Positions 19,384-26,197 of a DNA stretch of 57,976 nucleotides are shown here, piece after piece. A program made the position numbers and the translations under genes. Every line of letters starts with the position of its first letter. Within the stretch, counting starts at the first letter, position 1. This DNA comes from Sulfurospirillum sp. (GTDB lineage Bacteria; Campylobacterota; Campylobacteria; Campylobacterales; QNZT01): assembly GCA_024762875.1 (NCBI GenBank), contig JANTGR010000003.1, positions 1-57,976 of the forward strand, in the 5' to 3' direction. The notes beneath the pieces were generated by a model. It was not told where the DNA came from and searched no databases. It saw only the letters and a list, made by a program, of their open reading frames with translations.

Positions 19384-20451
19384 ATGAATTTACTGGAAAT
19401 CCTTTATGCACAAGAGTTTAAAACAACCACTTTTTACCCCAGAAAACAGTCAATAACCCATCCTAAAACCCTGCTTATTGGACCCAAAAAATCAGGTAAA
19501 ACCACCTTGGTACTTGATCACCTTTCCCAAGCCCAAAAAGGTTCTTTTCTCTATATCGATTTTGCTGATTTGCGTGTCAATCAAGCAATCTTTTTTGGCT
19601 TGCCTAATTTTCTGACAAAAAACAACATCCGCCTGTTGGTACTGGATAATTTTGATTTCTCATTTAAAATTCCAGATTGTGAAAATGTCATCGTAACAAC
19701 ACATCAAGCCAAAAGCATTGCAGGCTTTGCAACACAAAAAATCTATCCACTTGATTTTGAAGAATTTATCGCCTTTGAAAAACGGCAGATGAATATAGAA
19801 GCAATTTTCAATGACTATGCAGATGCAGGTACCTATCCTGTGATGGCACAAAGCAGCAAAGAACACCGTATAAAAAACTTTCAAAACCTGATTACCCTGA
19901 TGTGCGAAACCCCGCTGGAATTTACCATCTTTCAAAAATACGCACTATCACAGGGGCTCATCGTCTCCTCATTTTCACTTTTTAACGAGATTAAACTTTT
20001 TCACAAAGTCTCAAAAGACAAATTTTATGCCAATGTCAAAAAGCTGCAGGAAGAGAATATGATATTTTTAGTAGAAAAATACCAGGTACCCAGAGCAGAT
20101 AAAAAAGTCTATCTCATTGATTTTGCGATCAAAAGTGTACTGACCTTTGATAAAGATTTTATCAAGCGGTTTGAAAATATTATCTACCTTGAGCTATTTA
20201 AAGGTGGTGAGCGCGTTTACTATACTGATCTCATCGATTTTTATATACCTGATACATCTAAAGCAGTCATTGCCCTGCCGTTTTTACCACTGCCTATGAT
20301 CAAAACCAAATTAGAGCGTATTGAAAAAGAGTTGGAAAAATATCAGATTAAAAAGATTGAGATCATTACATTGGAGAGTGAGGGAGCATTCACATACAAG
20401 CATATGGATGTTGAGATACTCCCCTTTTGGTCCTGGGCACTACAGCGCTAA
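19384..20451 (+). CDS. P-loop ATPase (AAA_14/DUF4143-like)
   Basis: Walker A GPKKSGKTT. A Walker B-like LLVLDNFD. Start moved to the ATG at 19384 (MNLLEILYAQ). Confidence 0.6.
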   Translation: MNLLEILYAQEFKTTTFYPRKQSITHPKTLLIGPKKSGKTTLVLDHLSQAQKGSFLYIDFADLRVNQAIFFGLPNFLTKNNIRLLVLDNFDFSFKIPDCENVIVTTHQAKSIAGFATQKIYPLDFEEFIAFEKRQMNIEAIFNDYADAGTYPVMAQSSKEHRIKNFQNLITLMCETPLEFTIFQKYALSQGLIVSSFSLFNEIKLFHKVSKDKFYANVKKLQEENMIFLVEKYQVPRADKKVYLIDFAIKSVLTFDKDFIKRFENIIYLELFKGGERVYYTDLIDFYIPDTSKAVIALPFLPLPMIKTKLERIEKELEKYQIKKIEIITLESEGAFTYKHMDVEILPFWSWALQR

Positions 20452-21470
20452 TGCTCCATCTCAAACAGCAGGATATCCAGATCAAATATCTCAACTCCCT
20501 TACTGCCGTTTGCAACAAATAAAATCCCATCTTTCAGTAAAAGTGATAACCCTGATGTATTGTCACCCAAATCTTTTTCTCCTATCATGACAGGATTGGA
20601 TGGATCACTAACATCATAAAGCTGTAATCCTTCCATCCCGTGTGCCACAATCAGTTTGCTATCATGATCAACCAGTGCTATATCCAAAATCCCCTGATCT
20701 TTTAAAAGAAAATTTTGTTTAATATCTGTAGAATTGGTGATATCTTCACTCACCAATCCACAGGCATTCAGACGAAACCGTGTCGCTCCATCTTCACTCA
20801 CAGAAGTAACCTTCTTATCGATGTTCTCTACGACCCCTGTCTCCACAGGATGCGATATATCTGAAATATCCATGATATGATACCTGCCACGCTCATCTTC
20901 GATATAAAGTTTTTGTTCATCATCACTCAGGACAACATTAACAGCATTGATACCTTCAACAGAAGAAACTATTTCTGAGCTGATTTTGTCATCATATCCT
21001 ATCGAGATCACTTCCACACCCTGATTTTTTTCTGCCACAAAAATGATCCCATCTTTTGAGAGCTCAATATTTGCAGCATCACCTTTAGTTGCTACTGTAC
21101 CCAGCGAAGCACTTTTTGAATTTTTGGAGATTTCAATCGTGATCTTTTCACTACTGACTCCATCAGGAGACTCAGAATGTACGGCATAACTGTAATCACC
21201 AACATCTTTGATCTCAAAAGATACCTCAAGCGTTCCAGACTCCGGAATTGTCCCAACAAGTTCACCATTGATAAAAACTTTGGAACCATATTCTCCCAAA
21301 AGTGTAACATTGGCATAATCCTCTGTTGTTTCTATATAGCTTTGTTCTGCCGCAATCTGCGATGCATTCAAACTTACAACAGGTTCATGAACAGGTGGGG
21401 CACTTCTGTCTCCACACCCTATCATGACAGCTGCTAACACCAGTGATGCAATAAGCGCTTTTTTGTGCAT
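20448..21470 (-). CDS. lipoprotein with LVIVD-type beta-propeller repeats
   Basis: Start set at MHKKALIASLVLAAVMIGC (lipobox). Repeats such as KLIVAHGMEGLQLYDVSDPSNPV and GILFVANGSKGVEIFDL. The track's longer ORF to 21629 overlaps rnhB. Confidence 0.65.
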   Translation of the reverse strand: MHKKALIASLVLAAVMIGCGDRSAPPVHEPVVSLNASQIAAEQSYIETTEDYANVTLLGEYGSKVFINGELVGTIPESGTLEVSFEIKDVGDYSYAVHSESPDGVSSEKITIEISKNSKSASLGTVATKGDAANIELSKDGIIFVAEKNQGVEVISIGYDDKISSEIVSSVEGINAVNVVLSDDEQKLYIEDERGRYHIMDISDISHPVETGVVENIDKKVTSVSEDGATRFRLNACGLVSEDITNSTDIKQNFLLKDQGILDIALVDHDSKLIVAHGMEGLQLYDVSDPSNPVMIGEKDLGDNTSGLSLLLKDGILFVANGSKGVEIFDLDILLFEMEH

Positions 21471-21525
21471 TGTAATCTCCTTTGTTGTAAAATCGGAAAA
21501 AATGAAAATTATTTTAGGAGCAGCC

Positions 21526-22074
21526 ATGTTGTGTGGTATCGATGAAGCAGGCAGAGGATGCCTTGCAGGACCACTTGTAGTAGCAGGTGTGATACTGACA
21601 GGCGAGGTGGAGGGACTGGGTGACTCCAAGCAGCTAAGTGAAAAAAAACGTGAAGCACTCTATGAAAAGATTGTCAAAAACAGCCACTATGAAGTGATCT
21701 TTACAGACAATCAAACTATCGATGATATAGGACTTTCACTTGCCCTCAAACGTTCTATTATAACCATCATCAAAAAGCTATCGCCATCACACACTATCAT
21801 GGATGGCAACACGACTTTTGGCGTAGAAGGCGTAGAAGCCATCATCAAAGCAGATGCGAACATCGATGAAGTCTCAGCTGCAAGTATCCTGGCAAAGGTA
21901 AGCCGTGATCGATTTATCATCAGTCAGGATAGCCAGTATCCTGAGTATGGATTTGCCAAACACAAAGGATATGGGACAAAAGCACATATCGCCATGATTG
22001 CCAAACACGGTCTCTCACCACTGCATAGAAAAAGTTTTAAAATAAAATCCCTGTCACAACCAACACTCTTTTAA
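21526..22074 (+). CDS. rnhB: ribonuclease HII
   Basis: MLCGIDEAGRGCLAGPLVVAG (catalytic DE motif). AGGAG lies 5 nt upstream of the ATG at 21526. The ATG at 21502 is an alternative. Confidence 0.88.
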   Translation: MLCGIDEAGRGCLAGPLVVAGVILTGEVEGLGDSKQLSEKKREALYEKIVKNSHYEVIFTDNQTIDDIGLSLALKRSIITIIKKLSPSHTIMDGNTTFGVEGVEAIIKADANIDEVSAASILAKVSRDRFIISQDSQYPEYGFAKHKGYGTKAHIAMIAKHGLSPLHRKSFKIKSLSQPTLF

Positions 22075-22106: not shown

Positions 22107-22191
22107 AGATCTCATATCTAACATATAAGCTGTTTATATTATTTATAGTCGTACAATTACATTTATAATCCTGTAAAAATTAAGGAGAAGA

Positions 22192-23562
22192 GTGAATTTA
22201 AAAAATAAAAAAATTGTTATAACCTATGGCACATATGATATGTTGCATGAAGGACACCTAAATCTACTTAAACGTGCCAAAGCTCTTGGAAATTACCTGA
22301 TTGTCGGAGTGACTGATGAAAATTATGATCGTTCACGGGGGAAGCTTAATGTCTCTCAAAGCACCCAAGAGCGAGTGCATGCTGTGGAAGCTTTGGATTT
22401 TGTTGATAAAGTCATTATAGAAAAACACAAAAAGCAAAAAGCGTCAGACATGGTAAAGTATGATGTGGATATTTTTGCGATCGGTGATGACTGGGTCGGT
22501 GCATTTGATTATCTGAATGAATATACACATGTGGAGTATCTTCCTCGCACTGAAGGCATTTCAAGTACGCAACTTCGCCAAGAGCAGATAGGTGTCATCA
22601 AGATGGGTATTGTCGGCCTAGGACGTGACACACAGTCTTTTGTAGATGAAGCAGCATTTGTCTCAAGCATCAAACTTAACCGTATCTATGCTGATGATTT
22701 TTTGGCCATTAAAAAATTCAATAAAGAAAATCCGCAAATTGAATATGGTCATGATAATTATGATGATTTTTTAGATACGCATGTTCAGGCTGTTTATATC
22801 GATACAGCTCTCAAAAAACATTATATGTTAATAAAAAAAGCACTTCAAGCAGGGAAACATGTTTTGTGTGAAAATCCTATTGCACTTGAAAAAAAGGAGA
22901 TGAAGGAGCTGCTGTCTCTGGCAAAAAACAATAAGGTACTGCTGCTTCCGGCACTAAAAACCGCTTTTTTGCCTGCATTTAAGCAACTGCTAAAAGAGCT
23001 TGAAAAAGGTGAGATAGGTGAGATCAAAGAAGTACGGGCGACACGAACCTCTTTGTATAGAGAAAAAAATTACCCTGAAAGTTTTATGGCGCAGGGTGCT
23101 ACCAATATTTTAGCCGGTTACCCTACACTGCTTATTCACAAAGTGCTGGGTAAAAGAAAAAATACAACTTTCTTCGATCAGTATGATAATGGATTTGATA
23201 TATCCAATCTCATCGTCACTCAGCACCAAAACAATACTGTCGGAGTTGCCAGGGTGGCCACAGGAGCGAAATCAGAAGGTGATGCAGTAATTTCGGGTAC
23301 AAAAGGATATGTTTATATTCCGGCACCGTGGTGGCTGACAAAAGAGTTCTATTTTAAATTTGAAGATGCACATAAAAGCTATAAATTCAAGTATGAATTT
23401 GAAGGATGTGGTCTTCGTTATATGATCGCAGAATTTGCTTCATTGATACACAGAGGCAAACGCTCTTCTGAAGTATTACGACCTACAGACATTGTAGCCA
23501 TCAGTAGAATAGTGCTTGATTATCGTGACCATAAAGAAAACAGAGATAAAAAGGAACATTAG
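22192..23562 (+). CDS. fusion protein: TagD-like (glycerol-3-phosphate-type) cytidylyltransferase + Gfo/Idh/MocA oxidoreductase
   Basis: N-terminal ~130 aa: ITYGTYDMLHEGHLNLLKRAKALGNYLIVGV ... IGDDWVGAFDYL ... YLPRTEGISSTQLR. This closely resembles TagD, including the HxGH and RTEGISST motifs. C-terminal ~320 aa has a Rossmann IKMGIVGLGR and LCENP. GTG start with AAGGAG upstream. Confidence 0.8.
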   Translation: MNLKNKKIVITYGTYDMLHEGHLNLLKRAKALGNYLIVGVTDENYDRSRGKLNVSQSTQERVHAVEALDFVDKVIIEKHKKQKASDMVKYDVDIFAIGDDWVGAFDYLNEYTHVEYLPRTEGISSTQLRQEQIGVIKMGIVGLGRDTQSFVDEAAFVSSIKLNRIYADDFLAIKKFNKENPQIEYGHDNYDDFLDTHVQAVYIDTALKKHYMLIKKALQAGKHVLCENPIALEKKEMKELLSLAKNNKVLLLPALKTAFLPAFKQLLKELEKGEIGEIKEVRATRTSLYREKNYPESFMAQGATNILAGYPTLLIHKVLGKRKNTTFFDQYDNGFDISNLIVTQHQNNTVGVARVATGAKSEGDAVISGTKGYVYIPAPWWLTKEFYFKFEDAHKSYKFKYEFEGCGLRYMIAEFASLIHRGKRSSEVLRPTDIVAISRIVLDYRDHKENRDKKEH

Positions 23563-23565
23563 AAC

Positions 23566-24645
23566 ATGATATATGAAGATTTTGCCATATTTACTCCCGG
23601 ACCTGTCAAAATGTCTGAAGAGATTTTAGCCATTGGTGCAAAACAGACACCCTATTTTAGAAATGATAAATTTTCAGAAGTGACATTCAACTGTGAAAAA
23701 GGTCTGTTGAAAATGCTCAATGCTCCCAAAGGCTCAAAAGTCATCTTTTTGACAGCCTCAGGAACAGCAGGAATGGAATCAGTCGTGATGAATCTGCTCA
23801 CAGATGAAGACAAAGCACTGGTTATAAACGGTGGTGGATTTGGGGGACGCTTTGTGGATATCTGCAAAACACATAAAATCCCTCATACTGACTTCAAAGT
23901 ACAACACACAAATCTCAGTGATATTGCAACCCTTGCTCCAAACGAATCTTTTACGTCTTTGATTGTAAATGCACACGAGACTTCTGTAGGACATCTGTAT
24001 GATCTGAATGCTTTGGGAAGTTATGCAAAAAAGAATGATCTCTTTTTCATTGTTGATGCGATTTCGATGTTTGTTACTGATCCTATTGATATGTGTGCAC
24101 AAAACATTGACACTGTCATCATCAGTAGTCAAAAAGGGCTGGCTCTGCCTCCCGGCTTGACGATGGTTGTTTTGGCACCGCGTGCTTTAGAGAAAGTGCA
24201 AGATATTAATTCACTCTATTTTAATTTTAAAGATTATCTGCATAATGGTGAAAGAGGACAAACTCCGTATACACCTGCCGTAACCATCATGCTGCAGCTT
24301 GAAGCAAGACTGATGCAGATAGAGCGTGATGGTGGAGTAAAGCAGAGTATCACCCTCGCCAAAGAGATAGCAGCCTATTTTAGAGAAAATATCACGCCTT
24401 TACCATTAAAACCCTATACTGCTTATATGCCAAATGCCATGACTACACTCACTCCCACAGACGGAAAATCGGCGATAGATATTGTTAGAGATCTTGAAAA
24501 TGACTACAAAGTGATGGTCTGTCCAAACGGCGGTGATCAAAGAGATATGATCTTCAGAGTATCACATATGGGTGCTATGAGCAAAGCCTATACAGATTTA
24601 CTCATCGATGCACTATATGACTATTATGGCATGCAAAGAGCATAG
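23566..24645 (+). CDS. class V (AGXT/PhnW-like) PLP-dependent aminotransferase
   Basis: 359 aa. IVDAISMF and SSQKGLALPPGL (PLP lysine context). Confidence 0.75.
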   Translation: MIYEDFAIFTPGPVKMSEEILAIGAKQTPYFRNDKFSEVTFNCEKGLLKMLNAPKGSKVIFLTASGTAGMESVVMNLLTDEDKALVINGGGFGGRFVDICKTHKIPHTDFKVQHTNLSDIATLAPNESFTSLIVNAHETSVGHLYDLNALGSYAKKNDLFFIVDAISMFVTDPIDMCAQNIDTVIISSQKGLALPPGLTMVVLAPRALEKVQDINSLYFNFKDYLHNGERGQTPYTPAVTIMLQLEARLMQIERDGGVKQSITLAKEIAAYFRENITPLPLKPYTAYMPNAMTTLTPTDGKSAIDIVRDLENDYKVMVCPNGGDQRDMIFRVSHMGAMSKAYTDLLIDALYDYYGMQRA

Positions 24646-25419
24646 ATGGCAGTAGATCCACAAACTCTACGCAGTGCCCAGCTTATTATGTTGGAGATGC
24701 TTGTGGAGTTTGATACCATTTGTAAAAAGCATGATTTGACCTATTGGCTTGACAGCGGCACACTACTGGGTGCTGTGCGGCATAAAGGGTTTATTCCCTG
24801 GGATGACGATGTCGATATCGCGATGCCGGTTGAAGATTATGAAAAATTTGCCACATTGGCAAAAGAAGAACTCTCAGAACATATCTTCTTTCAAAATAAA
24901 GCCACTGATAATACTTTTGTATTTGACTATATGAAACTGCGTTCAAACAAAGCAAAAATCGTAGAGTTTCATGAAGCAAACAAGAGTGTGGACTATCATC
25001 AGGGTGTTTTTGTAGATATTTTTCCGATGTTACAAGTTAAAAAGAGTAGATTTCATCAGTGGTACTATCAAAGTGCCTTAGCCCTTATACGCTTTTTTTC
25101 AGAAAAAAACCTACATGTTCAAACCAGTATCCCAAGCCGTCCTATGCGAAGATTTTTGGCATGGACATTACGCTGTATGCATAAGAAAGATGCGACAAGT
25201 CATACACAGGTAATTTACGGTGGAGAGATGCCTGATGTCGCCGCATGGTTTGATAAAAAAGAGATTTTCCCGTTAACAAAACTCTCTTTTGAGGAAATAG
25301 AGTTTTATGTTCCAAAAAATCCAGACCACTATCTCCGTGCTATCTATGCATTTGATTACAAGCAGCTTCCGCCCGAAAATAAGCGTACCATTCACGCCCA
25401 TAAAGTGACTATCAGCTAA
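24646..25419 (+). CDS. licD: LicD family phospho-alcohol (phosphocholine/phosphopolyol) transferase
   Basis: 257 aa. YWLDSGTLLGAVRHKGFIPWDDDVDIAMP is the LicD signature. The ATG abuts the previous stop. Confidence 0.8.
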   Translation: MAVDPQTLRSAQLIMLEMLVEFDTICKKHDLTYWLDSGTLLGAVRHKGFIPWDDDVDIAMPVEDYEKFATLAKEELSEHIFFQNKATDNTFVFDYMKLRSNKAKIVEFHEANKSVDYHQGVFVDIFPMLQVKKSRFHQWYYQSALALIRFFSEKNLHVQTSIPSRPMRRFLAWTLRCMHKKDATSHTQVIYGGEMPDVAAWFDKKEIFPLTKLSFEEIEFYVPKNPDHYLRAIYAFDYKQLPPENKRTIHAHKVTIS

Positions 25420-25459: not shown

Positions 25460-26197
25460 ATGAAATACAGATCATTATTTATATCAGACTTACATTTAGG
25501 CACAAAATTTGCCAAAGCCGAAGAACTTCTAGAACTTATTAGAAATCATGAGGCGGAAAATATTTACCTTGTTGGAGATATTATCGACGGTTGGGCAATA
25601 AAAAAGAGACTCCACTGGAAACAGGCTTACTCCGACGTCATACAAAAAATACTCAGAGCAGCAAGAAAAGGAACCAATATCTACTATCTGACGGGAAATC
25701 ATGATGAGTTTCTACGTTCTTTTTTACCACTAATGCTTGGTGATAGTTTACATGTCGTTGACAGTATGGAATACAAAGCCCTTAATGGAGAGCGATATTT
25801 GGTTGTACATGGCGATATATTTGATTCACTGACACTCACGAAACGTTGGCTCAGTATATTTGGTGATGTCGGTTATGATGTGCTGCTGCACTTCAATCCA
25901 CTTATCAATATAATACGCCACTCTTTTGGCTTTAAACGCCACTGGTCACTCTCAAAGCATCTCAAAGATGACTTTAGAGAAAGATTGGATTTTATAAGAA
26001 CCTACGAAACGATGGCAACGCAATACGCCCGACAACAAGGATATGAGGGTGTTATCTGCGGCCACATACATAAAGCAGATATCAAATCTGTCAATGGTAT
26101 ACAGTATAAAAACTGTGGAGACTGGGTAGAGTCTTGTACTGCTATTGCGGAAACTTATGAGGGAAAATGGGAAATTATCGATGGACTGCATGTATAA
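25460..26197 (+). CDS. lpxH: UDP-2,3-diacylglucosamine diphosphatase (LpxH-type metallophosphoesterase)
   Basis: 245 aa. LFISDLHLG, LVGDIIDGW, LTGNHDEF, VVHGD, ICGHIH. Confidence 0.7.
   Translation: MKYRSLFISDLHLGTKFAKAEELLELIRNHEAENIYLVGDIIDGWAIKKRLHWKQAYSDVIQKILRAARKGTNIYYLTGNHDEFLRSFLPLMLGDSLHVVDSMEYKALNGERYLVVHGDIFDSLTLTKRWLSIFGDVGYDVLLHFNPLINIIRHSFGFKRHWSLSKHLKDDFRERLDFIRTYETMATQYARQQGYEGVICGHIHKADIKSVNGIQYKNCGDWVESCTAIAETYEGKWEIIDGLHV

Follow-up and report, generated by a model that had tools for sequence, protein, structure and literature searches.

Zwitterionic surface head groups such as phosphocholine, phosphoethanolamine and aminoethylphosphonate influence surface charge, how well bacteria resist cationic peptides and how hosts and phages recognise them, and to our knowledge very few supply routes for zwitterionic phospho-head groups are known. 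Among the closest described systems are the Pnt and Lic systems, including Tde1415, a PntC-AEPT fusion accompanied by LicD, and the LicC-LicD route to phosphocholine, whose logic runs in three steps: a class V aminotransferase supplies the amine, which is next activated by a cytidylyltransferase and finally joined to a glycan by an enzyme of the LicD family (PMC6697681). LicD enzymes take several CDP-alcohol donors, and Mf1, a member of this family, uses CDP-choline and CDP-ethanolamine (PMC11982090). In bifunctional CDP-alditol synthases, such as Bcs1/TarIJ for CDP-ribitol and HS5.17/HS5.18 for CDP-6-glucitol, the cytidylyltransferase is accompanied by a redox domain or enzyme that acts on a keto or alcohol phosphate (PMC10918830). 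The amino-alcohol phosphate considered below, serinol phosphate, is formed from dihydroxyacetone phosphate (DHAP) as the (S)-form by the HisC-family enzyme Cj1437 of Campylobacter jejuni (PMC11800397) and slowly by the phosphoserine aminotransferase PSAT1 (PMC9283133).

The locus described here lies in a window of 57,976 nucleotides from Sulfurospirillum sp. (contig JANTGR010000003.1) and comprises three co-directional open reading frames separated by gaps of 3 and 0 nt (Table 1), with the junctions reading TAG-aac-ATG between the fusion and aminotransferase genes and TAG-ATG between the aminotransferase and licD genes. Pfam searches agreed with the domain assignments made earlier for all three proteins: the fusion protein matched CTP_transf_like (aa 10-130, 65 bits) and GFO_IDH_MocA (aa 136-251, 58 bits), followed by a weak C-terminal domain match (aa 264-374), while Aminotran_5 (PF00266, 63 bits) and LicD (PF04991, 152 bits over the full profile) were recovered for the second and third protein. 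Promoter-like sites in the region were not more numerous than in shuffled sequence, and only the position of the listed site is suggestive. The composition profile revealed no GC anomaly over the cassette.

Table 1 Features of the cassette and its surroundings (positions in the window).
Feature	Position	Strand	Description
Promoter-like site	22142..22169	+	TTTATA, 16 nt spacer, TATAAT; 10/12 matches; 22 nt upstream of fusion gene
Shine-Dalgarno AAGGAG	22182..22187	+	4 nt 5' of GTG start; read in sequence
Fusion gene	22192..23562	+	456 aa, GTG start; TagD-like cytidylyltransferase + Gfo/Idh/MocA-fold domain
Cytidylyltransferase domain	22210..22587	+	aa 7-132; HxGH (LHEGH) and RTEGISST intact
Gfo/Idh/MocA-fold domain	22597..23526	+	aa 136-445; Rossmann GxxGxG kept, catalytic residues lost
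E227-N228-P229	22870..22878	+	site of EKP with catalytic Lys in active family members
Class V (fold type I) aminotransferase gene	23566..24645	+	359 aa
LicD-family phosphotransferase gene	24646..25419	+	257 aa
LpxH-like metallophosphoesterase gene	25460..26197	+	245 aa; sub-cut-off

We propose, with a probability of about 0.5, that the cassette is a mobile surface-glycan module in which aminotransferase, cytidylyltransferase and LicD act in this order to attach phosphoserinol. The class V aminotransferase would aminate a keto-phosphate, most likely DHAP, to serinol phosphate, which the TagD-like domain would convert with CTP to CDP-serinol, and LicD would move phosphoserinol from this donor to a sugar hydroxyl with release of CMP. 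The acceptor would be a surface glycan, most likely the LPS/LOS core or another envelope glycoconjugate. The Gfo/Idh/MocA (Gfo) domain, in turn, would descend from a reductase that is still active in relatives carrying the EKP motif; it would have lost its catalytic function but been kept by selection for structural or regulatory reasons unrelated to redox chemistry. We infer the substrates, the order of steps, the head group and the acceptor from gene content, motifs, the residues lost in the Gfo domain, and co-inheritance and gene context. Phosphoserinol, chosen by analogy, is our best guess for the head group, and a CDP-activated amino-alcohol phosphate passed on by LicD, for example a serinol phosphate donor as suggested in the earlier note, is the most plausible product. 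Literature searches on CDP-serinol, phosphoserinol and serinol in combination with LicD returned nothing relevant and no paper describing the pathway was found, consistent with the earlier remark that the architecture matches no characterised pathway.

The first domain is indeed TagD-like, as it matched Bacillus subtilis TagD over its full length (1coz, E 5.6e-34) and its LHEGH and RTEGISST motifs aligned with those of TagD (alignment to 1coz and 2b7l), with R and K in place of the phosphate-binding lysines K44 and K46. Its score against the TagD/TarD equivalog TIGR01518 (125.5 bits) lies below the cut-off of 165.4 and thus fails the equivalog threshold. Relatives that retain EKP either carry fused GDPD glycerophosphodiesterase domains or stand beside TagF-type transferases; these glycerol-phosphate links, the full-length TagD match and the basic residues at both lysine positions make C3 chemistry likely for the cassette, judged from sequence. 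A search for cytidylyltransferase residues separating amine-linked from Lys-type (K) fusions yielded none that was convincing, so that the sequence gives no direct sign of serinol phosphate over glycerol phosphate.

The aminotransferase matched PDB entry 3f0h (E 1.6e-94), and its SSQKG, which holds the PLP lysine, and VDAIS, whose Asp binds the pyridine nitrogen, aligned with the 3f0h motifs. Its top NCBIfam match, the phosphonate-handling PhnW-AepZ (TIGR03301), reached 161.3 bits and failed the cut-off of 360.8. This family match, Cj1437 and PSAT1 serve as precedents for the proposed step on a keto-phosphate. No match to PEP mutase over the cut-off was found in the whole genome (2.28 Mb, 89% complete), which extends an argument made earlier from the window and led us to reject a phosphonate route and, with it, a phosphonate head group.

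The AlphaFold model of the whole fusion protein has a mean pLDDT of 88 and a low-confidence linker at aa 126-132. Its second half has a two-domain fold with an N-terminal Rossmann domain and matches 3e9m (Foldseek, TM 0.88). The catalytic Lys of EKP is replaced by Asn, the motif reading ENP, and the Asp/Glu catalytic partner, equivalent to Asp176 of dimeric dihydrodiol dehydrogenase (DHDH), is Ile306, leaving only Tyr310 of the pair. Among 120 close homologues the Lys position holds N in 113, H in four and T, D or S in one each, with Lys in none, and within the clade 32 of 34 members have Asn at position 228 and none has Lys. More widely, the position varies freely among relatives (N, H, T, D, S, P, F, W, A), and among representatives at 50% identity the K forms retain GxGR, PH, EKP and GGxxExxSY, whereas non-K forms lose these variably. 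The earlier view of the fused oxidoreductase as partner of the aminotransferase in a keto-intermediate amination pair is not supported, given these replacements, the freely variable Lys position and a relative lacking the Gfo domain (P0383, see below). We therefore regard the oxidoreductase half as probably lying outside the cassette chemistry, although its conservation means that it may serve a non-canonical redox role.

Comparison of gene contexts gave a corresponding picture. Fusions of the non-K type adjoin an aminotransferase in six of seven informative contexts and K forms (L060, L061, P0248, P0259, P0263) in none of five, a difference with p ~0.008 in Fisher's exact test for this small sample of 12 contexts, from which P0245, P0244 and P0256 were left out because their contigs are too short. 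Loss of the Lys in the Gfo domain thus appears to go with an adjacent aminotransferase; the non-K exception, P0264, has an SDR neighbour instead. The partner is a class V enzyme in the clade of the window and in L025, L028 and P0269, and in sister cassettes (L062, P0252, P0255) it is swapped for a non-homologous, HisC-like enzyme, orthologous among these loci. P0383 has no Gfo domain: its TagD-like cytidylyltransferase is joined directly to a class V aminotransferase sharing 44% identity with that of the window (E 1e-93), and a LicD gene adjoins.

These observations bear on the order of the steps. Following the earlier view of an amination pair, CDP-glycerol could instead be oxidised at C2 by the Gfo domain with NAD(P)+ to CDP-dihydroxyacetone, which the aminotransferase would convert to CDP-serinol for LicD. 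This route would account for the intact fold and for the Rossmann glycines, Glu227, Pro229 and Tyr310 kept in the clade, as well as for the purifying selection reflected in 65-75% identity of the Gfo domain between phyla, and nucleotide-linked substrates are known in the Gfo family (KijD10, GnnA). We nevertheless consider it unlikely, since both catalytic residues are replaced at positions of which the first is free to vary, the residue ending strand beta-2, expected to be acidic for cofactor binding, is variable, and the glycine motif is gone entirely from other non-K clades that still have their aminotransferase partner. In addition, the HisC-like partners of the sister cassettes belong to a family binding free phosphate esters. 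The lost Gfo residues, the pairing of Lys loss with an aminotransferase and the Gfo-less P0383 thus make amination before activation the more likely order.

With the same enzyme order, a different head group is conceivable, such as phosphoethanolamine, phosphoserine, a 1-amino-propanediol isomer or a longer amino-polyol phosphate derived from a sugar phosphate. The fold of the cytidylyltransferase also occurs in ethanolamine- and choline-phosphate enzymes (3elb, 4zcp), the aminotransferase is related to PhnW and SerC, and CDP-ethanolamine is, as mentioned above, accepted by LicD enzymes. The HisC-like partners resemble transaminases as well as their relatives CobD and Cj1436, which are decarboxylases (PMC11800397), and they could thus act as decarboxylases rather than transaminases and provide phosphoethanolamine in those cassettes. 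For the cassette described here, such head groups seem improbable, as the domain scores far higher with TagD (121 bits) than with the ethanolamine (64 bits) or choline (38 bits) enzymes and its EKP relatives are linked to glycerol-phosphate enzymes. Glycolaldehyde phosphate, the keto precursor of phosphoethanolamine, is no common metabolite, and phosphoserine is already made by housekeeping SerC, which would render a dedicated enzyme redundant.

The triad recurs with its gene order unchanged at no fewer than 25 genome loci in two phyla, Campylobacterota and Gammaproteobacteria, well beyond what chance would give and in line with the earlier claim of one functional three-gene cassette. More than 25 genomes, either Sulfurovum-type or from sulfur-oxidising Gammaproteobacteria, hold the three genes together, with identities of 55-90% overall, 70-90% for fusion and aminotransferase and only 55-60% for LicD. 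No flanking genes are common to these loci; because flanks are unrelated between genomes and the distribution is patchy, the cassette is, by its genomic distribution, a self-contained, laterally moving module. The conserved fusion and aminotransferase, the divergent LicD and the unshared flanks fit a constant small-molecule chemistry with a variable acceptor. In a survey of 401 genomes of another phylum only two fusions were found, both of the EKP type. A same-genus comparison gave no empty site, as G304 is without the LpxH-like gene and G305 carries it in another context with no rnhB or glnS nearby. Scans of viral contigs with P0383 and the window aminotransferase found nothing. Lateral transfer would have carried the module between phyla, and a phage-like contig holds it as well.

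The strict co-inheritance also bears on the function implied by public annotations, which name the fusion 'glycerol-3-phosphate cytidylyltransferase' and the aminotransferase 'serine-glyoxylate aminotransferase', so that the fusion, in keeping with its TagD-like domain, would supply plain CDP-glycerol to LicD and the aminotransferase would belong to unrelated amino-acid metabolism. We consider this highly improbable: the aminotransferase is always inherited with the fusion across both phyla at gaps of 0-50 nt and diverges less than LicD; in sister cassettes a non-homologous aminotransferase takes its place, and in P0383 it is fused to the cytidylyltransferase.

The licD gene of the cassette is the sole LicD gene in its genome, and the acidic motif PWDDDVD of its product aligns with FKRP. 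Its top NCBIfam match is the Mf1 cholinephosphotransferase, at 85 bits far below the cut-off of 225. Mf1 and the glycolipid MfGL-II of Mycoplasma fermentans, a glucolipid bearing 2-amino-1,3-propanediol phosphate (PMC3403081), are the model for an acceptor that is a membrane lipid or glycolipid, where the cassette would provide a lipid with a new polar head group. Such an acceptor would suit most genomes, where the cassette is found by itself and no glycosyltransferases accompany it; the informative contexts, however, contain LPS-core or polysaccharide genes, and given the low Mf1 score we regard a lipid acceptor as quite unlikely. In the Sulfurovum relative L025 the module lies between genes for a heptosyltransferase, a lipid A acyltransferase, PAP2, an MsbA-like ABC transporter and a WaaL-type ligase, and other relatives adjoin Wzy, GT2 and GT4 genes. 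This LPS-core locus and these neighbours make a glycan or LPS the likely target on the basis of gene context. Tentatively, and short of an even chance, we would extend the proposal to a general route in which a class V or HisC-type aminotransferase, a TagD-like enzyme and LicD place phosphoserinol on LPS or glycans, with the pseudo-dehydrogenase domain left from a swap of reductase for transaminase.

The link to LPS/LOS had first been suggested by the adjacency of lpxH, which proved to be a weak hint, while the link itself gained independent support from the core and lipid A genes surrounding the module in L025. The LpxH-like protein fails both LpxH equivalog cut-offs (53.6 and 43.7 bits against 134 and 190) and scores lowest of three paralogues in the genome, all sub-threshold; moreover, the gene is missing from most other cassette loci, whose flanks are not conserved. 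No terminator-like site was found between licD and this gene, and in L015 the genes for the aminotransferase and LicD flank a homologue with 46% identity. The gene may thus be an accessory of the cassette, its membership being uncertain. A Metallophos domain fused to EKP relatives is not specifically related to the LpxH-like family (E 0.01). The window itself has no adjacent glycosyltransferase or LPS gene besides this doubtful paralogue.

If the proposal is correct, the cassette would provide a new donor nucleotide, the so far unreported CDP-serinol, and phosphoserinol as a new, undescribed zwitterionic head group. It would also present a clear case of a dehydrogenase domain persisting as a pseudoenzyme after transamination replaced its step, and thousands of public annotations of the kind quoted above, including 'Gfo/Idh/MocA oxidoreductase', would have to be corrected. 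With three genes only, apparently fed by central metabolites, the cassette is directly testable.

Compared with the Pnt and Lic systems, the cassette would follow the same three-step logic, and the cytidylyltransferase-aminotransferase fusion P0383 recalls PntC-AEPT. In contrast to those systems, its cytidylyltransferase is of the TagD type (CTP_transf_like) rather than the LicC/PntC type and carries the extra degenerate Gfo/Idh/MocA domain, and the genome without PEP mutase points to a phosphate ester rather than a phosphonate. With TagD/TarD (1coz, TIGR01518) it shares the alignment over the whole length, HxGH and RTEGISST and two basic phosphate-binding residues; it differs in its sub-cut-off score, one extra residue in the RGKLNV loop, the fusion to a 320-aa domain and the coupling to an aminotransferase instead of the TagF polymerase. 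The EKP-type relatives probably work like CDP-alditol synthases. Bcs1/TarIJ, however, combines an IspD-type cytidylyltransferase with an SDR/MDR reductase, different families from the CTP_transf_like and GFO_IDH_MocA domains found here, as noted earlier and confirmed with Pfam, and the redox domain of the window is without the catalytic Lys and Asp/Glu. The top sequence and fold matches of that domain belong to the dimeric dihydrodiol dehydrogenase subfamily (2o48, 3e9m), from which it differs by Asn for Lys97 and Ile for Asp176, with the equivalent of Tyr180 kept. Finally, Cj1437 catalyses the same reaction as the proposed first step (PMC11800397) and enzymes of its HisC-family type adjoin non-K fusions in sister cassettes, whereas the cassette enzyme belongs to class V; in C. 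jejuni, serinol phosphate ends as an amide on glucuronate without CDP activation or phosphodiester transfer.

ORF calls and the sequence itself bore out the positions and the 3- and 0-nt gaps that the earlier note had described for the three cassette genes, which all lie on the + strand, with the junctions reading TAG-aac-ATG and TAG-ATG. Pfam searches likewise confirmed each of its domain assignments: the fusion protein combines CTP_transf_like (aa 10-130) with GFO_IDH_MocA (aa 136-251) and a weakly matched C-terminal domain, the second protein matches Aminotran_5, and the third matches LicD over the whole profile (152 bits). GC content over the cassette is unremarkable in the composition profile, and its LicD gene is the only one in its own genome, which comprises 2.28 Mb in 213 contigs and belongs to a Sulfurovum-like member of the Campylobacterota. 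Elsewhere in the window, about 200 nt (21424-21629) are shared by the RNase HII ORF (216 aa) and the 5' end of an LVIVD-repeat ORF on the opposite strand (20448-21629); the RNase HII profile leaves the residues before 34-37 of the former uncovered, so its true start probably lies further downstream.

Features of the cassette, of the LpxH-like genes and of selected related loci
Feature	Position	Strand	Details
Promoter-like site	22142-22169		
AAGGAG ribosome-binding site	4 nt 5' of the fusion gene's GTG	+	read in the sequence
Fusion gene	22192-23562	+	456 aa, GTG start
Class V aminotransferase gene	23566-24645	+	359 aa
LicD gene	24646-25419	+	257 aa
LpxH-like metallophosphoesterase, window	25460-26197		paralogue, ~253 aa
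LpxH-like metallophosphoesterase	G000:C93:6458-7129		paralogue, ~253 aa
LpxH-like metallophosphoesterase	G000:C196:1857-2438		paralogue, ~253 aa
LpxH-like homologue, L015	5711-6631		Ectothiorhodospiraceae MAG
L062	6958-9261		G101, Campylobacterota
L067	1734-6293		
L068	531-5036		
L078	3004-7266		DUF4422-LicD (666 aa), P0383 (5001-6458, 485 aa) and GNAT acetyltransferase in adjacent genes

Public data contain thousands of relatives of the fusion protein, with homologues numbering roughly 18,000, and neighbourhood mining recovered fusion, aminotransferase and LicD genes in the window's order with short gaps at 25+ genome loci, which established the triad as a conserved unit. Identity across loci amounts to 70-90% for fusion and aminotransferase and 54-61% for LicD. 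Around the triad lie housekeeping and regulatory genes in random assortment, and when all flanking ORFs were clustered, no further gene recurred beyond a handful of loci closely related to one another. The distribution of the cassette is patchy, which together with the flanks marks it as a mobile unit: it occurs in one genome of a 300-genome phylum sample and in 3 of the 32 genomes of its own GTDB family, and the two further genomes of its genus both lack it. A tree of the fusion protein groups 13 sequences from several gammaproteobacterial orders into a single short-branched clade set against the Campylobacterota, a topology that a single transfer between the phyla followed by further spread would be enough to explain.

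The cytidylyltransferase domain aligns over the entire length of Bacillus subtilis TagD (E = 5.6e-34), with intact HxGH and RTEGISST motifs and basic residues opposite TagD Lys44 and Lys46, and scores 125.5 bits, below the TagD equivalog cut-off of 165.4. The aminotransferase retains its PLP-lysine motif; its top-scoring family is PhnW-AepZ, yet at 161 bits against a cut-off of 361, and among solved structures it is closely related to 3f0h (E = 1.6e-94), an entry without an assigned function.

The C-terminal part of the fusion protein adopts a complete Gfo/Idh/MocA fold (mean pLDDT 88 in the predicted model; Foldseek TM 0.88 to 3e9m), with the dimeric dihydrodiol dehydrogenase group as nearest kin. 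Its catalytic EKP motif is replaced by ENP and the Asp176 equivalent by Ile, so that only the Tyr is retained. In 120 close homologues, N (113), H (4), T, D or S (1 each) occupies the Lys position, and K never does. Comparison of motif states across representatives of the fusion family at 50% identity separated EKP forms, in which the Rossmann GxGR, PH, EKP and GGxxExxSY motifs are all retained, from non-K forms (with N, S, T, P, F, W, A or another residue), in which these have been lost to different extents, in some including the glycine motif. GxxGxG, Glu227, Pro229 and Tyr310 are retained in the window's clade. Between phyla, the Gfo domain is 65-75% identical, compared with 80-88% for the cytidylyltransferase domain, which argues that it is under selection even though two of three catalytic residues are missing.

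The motif state is mirrored by gene context. A class V aminotransferase gene adjoins the non-K fusions of the window's own clade, of the Sulfurovum loci L025 and L028 (57-59% identical) and of the related protein P0269, while L062, P0252 and P0255, also non-K, adjoin HisC-like class I/II aminotransferases that are mutual orthologues (45-56% identity); the remaining non-K form, P0264, is accompanied by an SDR and two LicD genes without an aminotransferase. An aminotransferase neighbour was thus found in 6/7 informative non-K contexts versus 0/5 for EKP fusions (Fisher exact p ~0.008), the latter adjoining TagF-type transferases, LicD, glycosyltransferases, a second Gfo protein or GDPD. The ENP-type fusion at L062 has also lost the Rossmann glycine motif (LGILTQNPR); its aminotransferase gene follows after 3 nt, no LicD gene is adjacent, and the contig breaks off a short way upstream of the fusion. 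At L067 and L068, an Octopine_DH-family gene precedes genes for a HisC-like aminotransferase, a non-K fusion and a hexapeptide acyltransferase, a hint that the amine head group of that version may undergo opine-type N-carboxyalkylation or N-acylation.

Some EKP relatives are large multi-domain proteins (P0247 with 1240 aa, P0250, P0251, P0249 and P0363) with Metallophos-CT-Gfo-GDPD, Metallophos-CT-Gfo, CT-Gfo-GDPD and Gfo-GDPD architectures (CT, cytidylyltransferase). These fusions tie the family to glycerol-phosphate chemistry and suggest that glycerophosphodiesters are salvaged into a CDP-alcohol. The EKP-type fusion P0259 lies on contigs with Exostosin_GT47 and RNA_pol genes (L070, L071; GCA_001564335.1) that look eukaryotic or giant-virus-like rather than bacterial.

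The most telling case is P0383, in which a TagD-like cytidylyltransferase is fused straight to a class V aminotransferase (44% identity to that of the window, E = 1e-93) without any Gfo domain; next to its gene lie those for a DUF4422-LicD protein and a GNAT protein. This argues that the Gfo domain is dispensable for a cytidylyltransferase-aminotransferase-LicD route. The contig is phage-like, with a Phage_T4_Y07B match and many small ORFs, and the trio is possibly a minimal, phage-borne version of the module; scans of a viral contig collection revealed no further copies. Given the missing Lys and Asp176 equivalent and the Gfo-free P0383, the oxidise-then-aminate mechanism proposed in the earlier note is not supported.

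We infer instead that the Gfo domain of EKP forms probably reduces a keto-phosphate or CDP derivative to an alcohol, a step that in non-K forms would be replaced by an aminotransferase, yielding an amine, or by an SDR. As shared keto substrate, dihydroxyacetone phosphate (DHAP) is the strongest candidate because the cytidylyltransferase is TagD-like, because EKP relatives are linked to glycerophosphodiesterases, and because HisC-family enzymes bind substrates of the R-CO-CH2-O-phosphate type. Two precedents point the same way: the HisC-family enzyme Cj1437 is a proven transaminase converting DHAP to (S)-serinol phosphate (PMC11800397), and phosphoserine aminotransferase PSAT1, whose family is related to the window aminotransferase in profile searches, turns DHAP into serinol phosphate in a side reaction (PMC9283133). 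DHAP would accordingly be converted to serinol phosphate and then to CDP-serinol, from which LicD would transfer phosphoserinol. LicD enzymes are not restricted to a single CDP-alcohol donor (PMC11982090), and a serinol phosphate unit occurs naturally in the Mycoplasma fermentans glycolipid MfGL-II (PMC3403081). Acyltransferase genes adjoin the module in L025, L067 and L078, suggesting that some versions may N-acylate the amine; the window's cassette contains none, and its head group would thus be zwitterionic. The product class put forward earlier, a CDP-activated amino-alcohol donor used by LicD, therefore remains plausible, although the proposed route to it is not supported; phosphoserinol is the leading candidate for the product.

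Regarding the acceptor, the earlier hint at LPS had relied on adjacency to lpxH, which proved weak: the gene downstream of licD scores 43-54 bits against LpxH cut-offs of 134-190, is the lowest-scoring of three paralogues, none of which reaches the cut-off, and lacks a conserved neighbourhood within the genus. It starts 40 nt after licD with no terminator-like site between, and at L015 a 46%-identical homologue lies between the aminotransferase and LicD genes; the protein could be a cassette-linked CDP-alcohol pyrophosphatase rather than LpxH. The LPS link is better supported by L025, where the module lies between genes for a heptosyltransferase, a lipid A late acyltransferase, PAP2, two LicD proteins, an MsbA-like transporter and a WaaL-type ligase, and by Wzy, ligase and glycosyltransferase neighbours at other relatives' loci. 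A lipid acceptor is a possible alternative.

Public annotations of the cassette proteins are generic. The cassette falls outside the TagD, PhnW, LpxH and CDP-ribitol synthase equivalog families by those families' own criteria. The literature searched gave no account of CDP-serinol, of phosphoserinol transfer or of genes in this arrangement. A parallel is offered by Lic/Pnt systems, which follow the same logic of aminotransferase, then cytidylyltransferase, then LicD, and in which a PntC-aminotransferase fusion exists (PMC6697681). The cassette differs from them in its cytidylyltransferase family, the lack of a phosphonate and the additional pseudo-dehydrogenase domain, and is best read as a new variant of a Lic/Pnt-type head-group decoration system.
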